Below are positions 14,619-15,374 of a stretch of DNA of 64,000 bases, piece by piece. How positions within the stretch are numbered: position 1 is the first letter of the stretch; each line of letters begins with the position of its first letter. The notes under the pieces are model-generated. The model was given only the letters and a program-made list of their open reading frames with translations. It was not told where the DNA came from and did not search any database. The DNA comes from Octopus sinensis (taxonomy: Eukaryota), in assembly GCF_006345805.1 (NCBI RefSeq), contig NC_042998.1, positions 64,542,001-64,606,000 on the forward strand. The letters run 5' to 3'. The position numbers were made by a program, and so were the translations under genes.

Positions 14619-15203
14619 TCATAAATTTGTTTTGCAAGATTCCTGGTGGGTCGTCGTGTATTGAAACAGATATTGTTGTATTTCTGGATGGCCATTTTGT
14701 TTCCTTTGACAAATAAACACATTTGTTCTTCCCTCGTTTATTACCGTTCTTTGTTCAGAAATCTCTCATTACACATCTGTAACCTCCTCATGCTTATTTC
14801 ATTGGTATAAGCAGAACAAGAGCAGGCACGAAAACAAAGTGTATCGCTAAGGGTGTCACAGATGTGTGACGATAGCTGAGTGACGAGTGAAGAACGAATA
14901 TGTTGTGCGTGTTTATATTTGGCAAAAAAAATTACCATGCTGAAATACAACAATATACATATATATATATAATTGAGTAGTTGAATGAATTATCTTATTA
15001 TGGATAATTCGGTTAACCGATACCTGGGTAGCAAATTCACGTCAGAAAAACACGGTTGAAGCTACATGCCTAGGGCAGAAATCACGTGCTATCGTGTGAA
15101 AATTTGTGTGTCTTTTTGAATACAAATAAATGAAAGAATGGGCTCCGTGTGGGCAGGCATCTAAAAGTTTTTGTGCATCTTGATGCTGACATAAGTTCCT
15201 TAC

Positions 15204-15286
15204 TTTTCCTGATGAGAAGGCGGCATAATGCACCCCTTATTTCTTCGAAATTAGGAATATGCGGCCTTCGAAACATATGTCGAAAA
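15204..15286 (+). ncRNA. Type I hammerhead ribozyme with long stem II
   Basis: ttttc-CTGATGA-gaaggc..gcata..tatgc..gccttc-GAAAC-atat-GTC-gaaaa; canonical core; palindromic ACATATGT. Confidence 0.88.
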
Positions 15287-15339
15287 TAAAATAAAGGAAT
15301 TTTGTTAATTCGTCGTTCAACTCCATTCTTTCATTTATT

Positions 15340-15374
<35 letters not shown>

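Follow-up and report, generated by a model that had tools for sequence, protein, structure and literature searches.

Hammerhead ribozymes associated with Penelope-like elements (PLEs) share a type I order of core and helices, a 4–5-bp helix I, a larger-than-usual helix II of 6–8 bp with a short loop and a short palindromic helix III, and they are found mostly as single dispersed copies and opposite-strand pairs, with a requirement for dimers. A short palindromic helix III functions as a dimer (PMC4209133), and the dimer-dependent design is known for metazoan and PLE hammerheads alike (PMC4209133; PMC7229834 and PMC3088659 in excerpt). PLE insertions often include an inverted, 5′-truncated copy, and the Naiad and Hydra families, cephalopod ones included, prefer (TA)n targets, the Hydra clade having a hammerhead near the 3′ end and Naiads being described as lacking canonical ones, as far as the accessible part of PMC8557442 goes. 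In the portion of PMC11167929 at hand, the purified Poseidon protein cuts and extends both target strands of AT-rich DNA, starts at two internal RNA sites and uses uncleaved RNA, and cleavage by the Poseidon hammerhead depends on the protein. Double priming and self-priming are both candidates for the way in which PLE enzymes produce head-to-head insertions.

Two further systems are close. Metazoan non-LTR retrozymes, defined by tandem units and circular RNA, are ORF-less, low-GC elements carrying a type I hammerhead with a 2-bp stem III and a palindromic tetraloop, and PLE dependence has been proposed for them (PMC7229834 and bioRxiv 10.64898/2026.07.22.740005, both in excerpt); the accessible text of the 2026 preprint regards the retrozymes of animals as non-autonomous elements derived from PLEs, and reports cleavage in one of nine retrozymes tested as dimers. 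In L1 twin priming, two target ends prime the same RNA, one of them internally, and a join over microhomology leaves a 5′ inversion (PMC2912911, in excerpt).

Here we compare with these systems a 373-nt element in a 64,000-nt stretch of Octopus sinensis DNA (the window). Our preferred reading, held with moderate confidence, is that it represents an aged copy of a high-copy hammerhead repeat in two head-to-head arms, likely a non-autonomous RNA element inserted by a PLE RT/GIY-YIG enzyme. To judge by its sequence, the element would behave as the type I hammerheads of PLEs or retrozymes do, set in an insertion of the PLE type. With EN+ PLEs, including the cephalopod Hydra and Naiad families, it shares an inverted, 5′-truncated head-to-head copy, a (TA)n or AT-rich target and a hammerhead near the 3′ end, and with PLE hammerheads in general the helix sizes given above for helices I and III, a large helix II, single dispersed copies, opposite-strand pairs and a dimer requirement, predicted here. 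Unlike PLE hammerheads, it has no linked PLE ORF: the element contains no ORF at all, and no ORF for RT plus GIY-YIG was recognised among the 6 of 29 window ORFs scanned. With the retrozymes it shares the ORF-less, low-GC make-up, the type I hammerhead, the 2-bp stem III, the palindromic tetraloop and the proposed dependence on PLEs, whereas what stands at this locus is a two-arm fragment with an inversion; no array of ORF-less units that each carry a hammerhead was found within the window, where the focal family has a single copy and neither blastn nor nhmmer found a second. A weak blastn match at 24800–24899 was dropped, as it rests on a TA run. A search for tRNA and tmRNA genes found none and thus gave no sign of a tRNA-derived SINE, and two exact-pattern scans of metagenome contigs returned 0 and 0 matches.

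A high-copy repeat in two arms between TA runs

The following features describe the insertion (strand in brackets where one applies):
14953–14971, left (TA)n target run
14972–15141 (−), minus arm: inverted stretch from the distal 3′ part of the RNA, ending in (TA)n
14987–15010 (−), 8–9-bp hairpin (centroid fold), 15 nt from the distal 3′ end
15120–15141 (−), left copy of the 22-bp overlap
15138–15141, 4-nt microhomology (ATGG) at the head-to-head junction
15138–15344 (+), plus arm: 5′-truncated, carrying the hammerhead and ending in (TA)n with TA microhomology
15323–15344 (+), right copy of the 22-bp overlap, where the insertion has its proximal 3′ end
15345–15375, right (TA)n target run

Abundance was read from contigs of four public runs (X1, X3, X5 and X7), aligned to 14640–15620 at a likeness of at least 80% with 15324–15394 left out; in the three large runs, 5564, 3587 and 4434 contigs fell on this stretch, neighbouring repeats included. 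Summed contig depth was 43–47 on the unique flank right of 15395, and in the three large runs it reached 3 × 10^5 to 8 × 10^5 over 15201–15332 and 1 × 10^4 to 1.2 × 10^6 over 14970–15134. The ratio near 10^4 points to thousands of copies, summed depth itself being no copy number. The high-copy sequence spans 14972–15344 and is flanked by (TA)n left and right, and the majority of aligned contigs were 90–99% alike. The window copy is not fresh, because it has private bases at 15099, 15157, 15202 (where 92% of depth differs) and 15242 (where more than 99% of X1 depth differs).

An earlier note on this DNA had reported a 22-bp inverted repeat bracketing the ribozyme, and the repeat is indeed exact (15120–15141/15323–15344) and unique in the window; its 2 matches compare with an expectation of 0.00, and none of 100 shuffles reached that number. 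Its description as terminal, enclosing the element, was not borne out: high-copy sequence runs about 148 nt further left of 15120, up to the second (TA)n at 14971, and the overlap in other copies is longer or absent. The locus consists instead of a minus arm and a plus arm joined head-to-head (5′ to 5′) over four bases in common, and the natural RNA runs from the hammerhead through the 22-mer into the reverse complement of 15119–14972. Contigs that match from 15138 rightward and have other sequence before it numbered 14 in X1, 20 in X3 and 5 in X7. Among the joints listed (15 of 45 and 12 of 29, with sides of 20–50 nt on short contigs), we found at least nine distinct junctions of left arm to right arm, each at a different point; the other listed joints lay in the neighbouring repeat.
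Arm junctions 1–5: 14987–15288, 15048–15243, 15052–15299, 15069–15138, 15139–15255
Arm junctions 6–9: 15140–15289, 15141–15213, 15141–15217, 15141–15269

In four of the nine (one each from X1, X3, X5 and X7), 15140/15141 was followed by 6–19 nt antisense to 15303–15322; a fifth was ambiguous. Because the junctions differ and the overlap runs 6–19 nt further in these four, the 22 bp are probably a copy-specific overlap of two back-to-back arms and not an element end. The perfect ‘TIR’ around a ribozyme is thus a misleading feature, probably a by-product of insertion, and the hallmarks of a MITE or TIR transposon, fixed inverted repeats at true termini together with a target duplication, were not found here.

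No target duplication flanks 15120–15344. An interrupted 19-mer of 14953–14971 recurs at 15355–15373, which made it a candidate for a 19-nt target duplication; it was set aside as weak, given the 10-nt offset and the five occurrences of the word on the plus strand of the window, in 5 of 36 TA clusters. Just left of the left TA run, within other high-copy repeats, lies an imperfect 33-bp inverted pair (85%; 14670–14702/14924–14956).

The same insertion could also have carried another kind of sequence, namely the 5′-truncated 3′ end (pLTR) of an autonomous PLE, which we regard as possible but doubtful. Its appeal lies in position and context: the cut site is 63 and 211 nt from the two 3′ ends, and Hydra-clade PLE hammerheads lie roughly 100–200 nt from the 3′ end (File S2 of PMC8557442, in excerpt); PLE hammerheads occur mostly as single motifs in truncated copies (PMC4209133); and X7 contigs continue for 117–210 nt past the aligned part. 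Against this, the 373 nt hold no ORF, the octopus Hydra hammerhead listed in the accessible part of PMC8557442 differs from the focal one, and the stem III words had no match in the supplement of that paper as available, where line breaks could hide one.

Proposed route of insertion

In the preferred reading, of a non-autonomous RNA element, a PLE enzyme would cut both strands of the TA run, and each freed 3′ end would start cDNA synthesis on the RNA of the element, a single molecule or two copies of it, at one distal site and at one 148 nt further upstream, right after the 22-mer. The distal cDNA, 170 nt long, would extend 22 nt past the second priming site and so generate the 22-bp inverted repeat, the proximal cDNA of about 205 nt would pass through the ribozyme, and the two would be joined over ATGG. 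Pairing as a dimer, via a tandem transcript or with protein assistance, would lead to the cut after 15281.

The plus arm and six of the nine other junctions cross the cut site, so the template must have been uncut or religated there; a monomer that is nearly silent fits a copy having been read through the cut site. Two of the nine junction starts lay within about 2 nt of the cut site (a 5-nt indel allowed), six read through and one lay downstream; a clustering of starts at the cut site (binomial p 0.03–0.09, post hoc) was not taken as support. The hairpin 15 nt from the distal end may recall, by analogy, the stem-loop start site of Poseidon, and in other copies this hairpin (14987–15010) keeps a pairing base at 14995 and has another loop (loose ends at 15000). 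The two 3′ ends of the window copy are 148 nt apart, compared with a PLE tail of 30–40 nt (PMC8557442, in excerpt).

L1 offers the nearest parallel for the geometry, with two target ends priming the same RNA and twin priming leaving microhomology at the inversion (PMC2912911, in excerpt). The focal element differs in having neither a poly(A) tail nor an L1 target; priming would be from (TA)n, and the internal site may be a preferred one. The same layout recurs in the window in a second hammerhead family with a unit of 600 bp, which occupies 4870–5859 on the minus strand and 5860–6808 on the plus strand, with TA microhomology at both ends.

An origin of the inversion in fold-back self-priming from an antisense template, or in a subsequent local inversion or repair event, instead of in double priming at insertion, seems improbable to us. 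Self-priming has been proposed for head-to-head PLE copies, one of which has an inverted pLTR overlapping the direct one by 15 bp (PMC3846280, in excerpt). That model needs palindromes at the junction, however, and the focal junction has none; the two arms derive from separate parts of the RNA, (TA)n adjoins both outer ends, and nine other junctions have the same geometry. With thousands of short copies and readable junctions, double priming as favoured here and self-priming have good material on which they can be separated.

The hammerhead core and its predicted cut

The ribozyme on the plus arm comprises the following parts:
15189–15201 (+), 5′ strand of distal helix I, pairing with 15294–15305
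15204–15208 (+), 5′ strand of proximal stem I (5 bp), pairing with 15282–15286
15209–15215 (+), hammerhead core CUGAUGA
15216–15269 (+), 54-nt stem II: 6-bp base (GAAGGC/GCCUUC), 1 × 1 loop, 5 bp, internal loop, apical hairpin
15270–15281 (+), GAAA core and 8-nt palindrome (15273–15280), with the predicted cut after 15281
15282–15305 (+), 3′ strands of proximal and distal helix I, with an internal loop containing a 5-nt repeat

All the parts named in the earlier note were located, namely CUGAUGA, the 54-nt stem II with its 6-bp base, GAAAC-AUAU-GUC, the 5-bp stem I and the cut position, predicted after C15281. CUGANGA, GAAA and UH follow one another in type I order, the three helices can be assigned (G10.1–C11.1 and A15.1–U16.1 included), and every core position, G10.1–C11.1 and the palindrome are intact in the window copy. 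Overlooked in the earlier note was the reach of helix I, which continues beyond an internal loop for about 13 bp past the proximal 5 bp, with probabilities of 0.75–0.95 for the seven pairs checked between 15189–15201 and 15294–15305; the 5-nt repeat in the loop is missing from many copies. In the monomer ensemble the proximal stem I had pair probabilities of 0.18–0.25, and stem III, of 2 bp as a monomer, had 0.03–0.04. The label ‘canonical’ given earlier to this hammerhead is thus apt for the core but not for stem III.

The nucleotides 15273–15280 form a perfect palindrome, which yields an 8-bp stem III in a dimer. The double hammerhead had an energy of −57.0 kcal/mol against 2 × −22.6 for two active monomers; the active monomer fold lay 4.4 kcal/mol above the monomer minimum of −27.0 kcal/mol. 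The co-fold minimum (−63.6), in which the palindrome helix is formed and proximal stem I is not, was more stable than the active dimer. This modelling predicts a ribozyme that has next to no activity as a monomer and that would cut after 15281 once the palindromes of two copies have paired.

A motif descriptor returned five hammerheads in the 64-kb window, the focal one and four in the 600-bp family, compared with a mean of 0.013 motifs per shuffle in 150 block-wise dinucleotide shuffles of the window; a motif with a palindromic stem III appeared in 0 of 150. Rfam gave no hammerhead match in the window at the gathering threshold, and of the 23 weak matches with E values up to 10, most of which lay on the TA run, none was a hammerhead, likely because of the long stem II. 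The silence of Rfam even at that cut-off, the four private changes (15099, 15157, 15202 and 15242) and the 4.4 kcal/mol that separate the active fold from the monomer minimum could be read as marks of a sequence that resembles a hammerhead by chance or after decay and has no catalytic significance. We hold this to be very improbable, given that no shuffle produced such a motif, that the core, G10.1–C11.1 and the palindrome have stayed intact and that the 600-bp family, which is independent, is built alike.

A branch-point-like word and a pyrimidine tract lie immediately upstream of the core (15186–15219), with poor AG contexts downstream; in Drosophila Penelope, an intron end maps to helix I (PMC4209133).

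The plus arm alone folded with a z of −0.40 and the 225-nt span with a z of −5.96, the strength of the latter fold being due to the inverted repeat. Two roles for the exact 22-bp repeat, which closes this 225-nt fold, are largely refuted and barely credible, one as a functional stem that closes the RNA and the other as the TIR belonging to a hammerhead-capturing MITE, since the high-copy sequence runs on for 148 nt past the left copy of the 22 bp, the overlap varies in length between copies, other copies differ before 15138 and 15120–15344 has no flanking target duplication.

The long stem II

In a hammerhead, stem II is where insertions are tolerated. The 54-nt insert folded better than 199 of 200 shuffles (z −3.25), a generous figure as the boundaries were set by eye, and the 76-nt stem II of the 600-bp family, delimited in the same generous way, folded better than 196 of 200. 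Variation among copies bears on this arm at several places. At 15242, in the apical hairpin, the common base makes a Watson–Crick pair where the window copy has its private one. Across the four runs, a G>A change at 15220 made up 17, 22, 4 and 32% of the depth, and in one X7 loose end its partner, 15265, was a T; the two would be compensatory if they occur together, but they are unphased. Among the 40 variants listed of 86, none lay between 15249 and 15547. Contigs with loose ends at 15245 (8 from X3 and 6 from X5) and at 15266 (1 from X7) suggest a subfamily with a shorter stem II or apical loop that keeps the same apical hairpin. Most likely, a normal core has tolerated the long stem II as an insertion that preserves structure.

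The published comparison set has little of this kind. PLE hammerheads have a helix II of 6–8 bp with a short loop, whereas the focal one has a multi-helix arm of 54 nt and, at its 5′ end, no base that bulges out. In the 34 rows of File S2 of PMC8557442, as accessible, none of the 26 animal rows has more than about 26 nt between CUGANGA and GAAA by our own count, so that the focal stem II, on sequence grounds, would be about twice the longest among the 26 listed animal PLE hammerheads; the hammerhead of the octopus Hydra-1_oBim differs in sequence, and its stem II measures about 23 nt, unlike the focal 54 nt. The exceptions in that file are PLE-X1_sMoe and PLE-X1_sTam, with spacers of about 54 and 48 nt (own count). 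Like the focal hammerhead, these two combine a type I core with a long CUGAUGA–GAAA spacer, and they are marked there as deviating from canonical; they differ in being plant elements, endonuclease-less, targeted to 28S rDNA and unrelated in sequence (PMC8557442, in excerpt). The core search described in the accessible part of that paper limited the spacer to 17 nt. We found no named long-stem-II class in the literature searched, where ‘long’ helices meant 6–8 bp only (PMC13725137), and the accessible parts of PMC10085705 and PMC2837043 contain nothing on such a class. A long stem II therefore has a spike-moss precedent and, in the texts and tables covered, none that we found for animals; the supplements of PMC4209133 and PMC7229834 may show longer ones.

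The earlier note had also taken the focal hammerhead for a second family with a long stem II, unrelated in sequence to the 600-bp unit and pointing to a recurring structural subclass. The first part held up: similarity to the 600-bp unit was limited to the stem III/core word (nhmmer), and the family is high-copy with a 54-nt insert that folds better than nearly all its shuffles. The subclass did not find the same support, as the 54- and 76-nt inserts have no sequence and no specific fold in common and the covariation is unphased.

A bolder proposal, which we put forward as speculative and rather unlikely, is an overlooked and very abundant animal class of type I hammerheads with a structured stem II of 45–80 nt, invisible to Rfam and to published descriptors, whose arm would be a selected module (for example one on which the PLE enzyme docks, or one that gates cleavage in the dimer); thousands of two-arm insertions would then record double priming at two preferred RNA sites, the overlap length giving the run of the first cDNA past the second primer. 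If long stem II arms are common, counts of animal hammerheads, and calls of ‘no hammerhead’ in some PLE families, are biased by descriptor limits.

Several other repeats lie in the window. The 600-bp hammerhead family at 4870–6808, with its 76-nt stem II and palindromic stem III, is joined head-to-head at 5859/5860 and has (TA)n at both ends. A 7.3-kb inverted duplication (6203–13518 and 31496–38811; 99.8% identical, blastn) has one of its ends where the 600-bp unit has its proximal 3′ end site and may be element-mediated or an assembly artefact; inside it is a fragment of a LINE-type reverse transcriptase (PF00078; 11498–12502 and 32512–33516). An ORF at 20444–21238 has a weak zf-RVT match below the Pfam cut-off and is likely the C terminus of another non-LTR element. 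By eye, 14000–14330 has the look of a decayed mariner-type transposase. A palindromic repeat of about 210 bp lies at 2332–2539, with partial copies at 9277, 35641 and 50625 (blastn).
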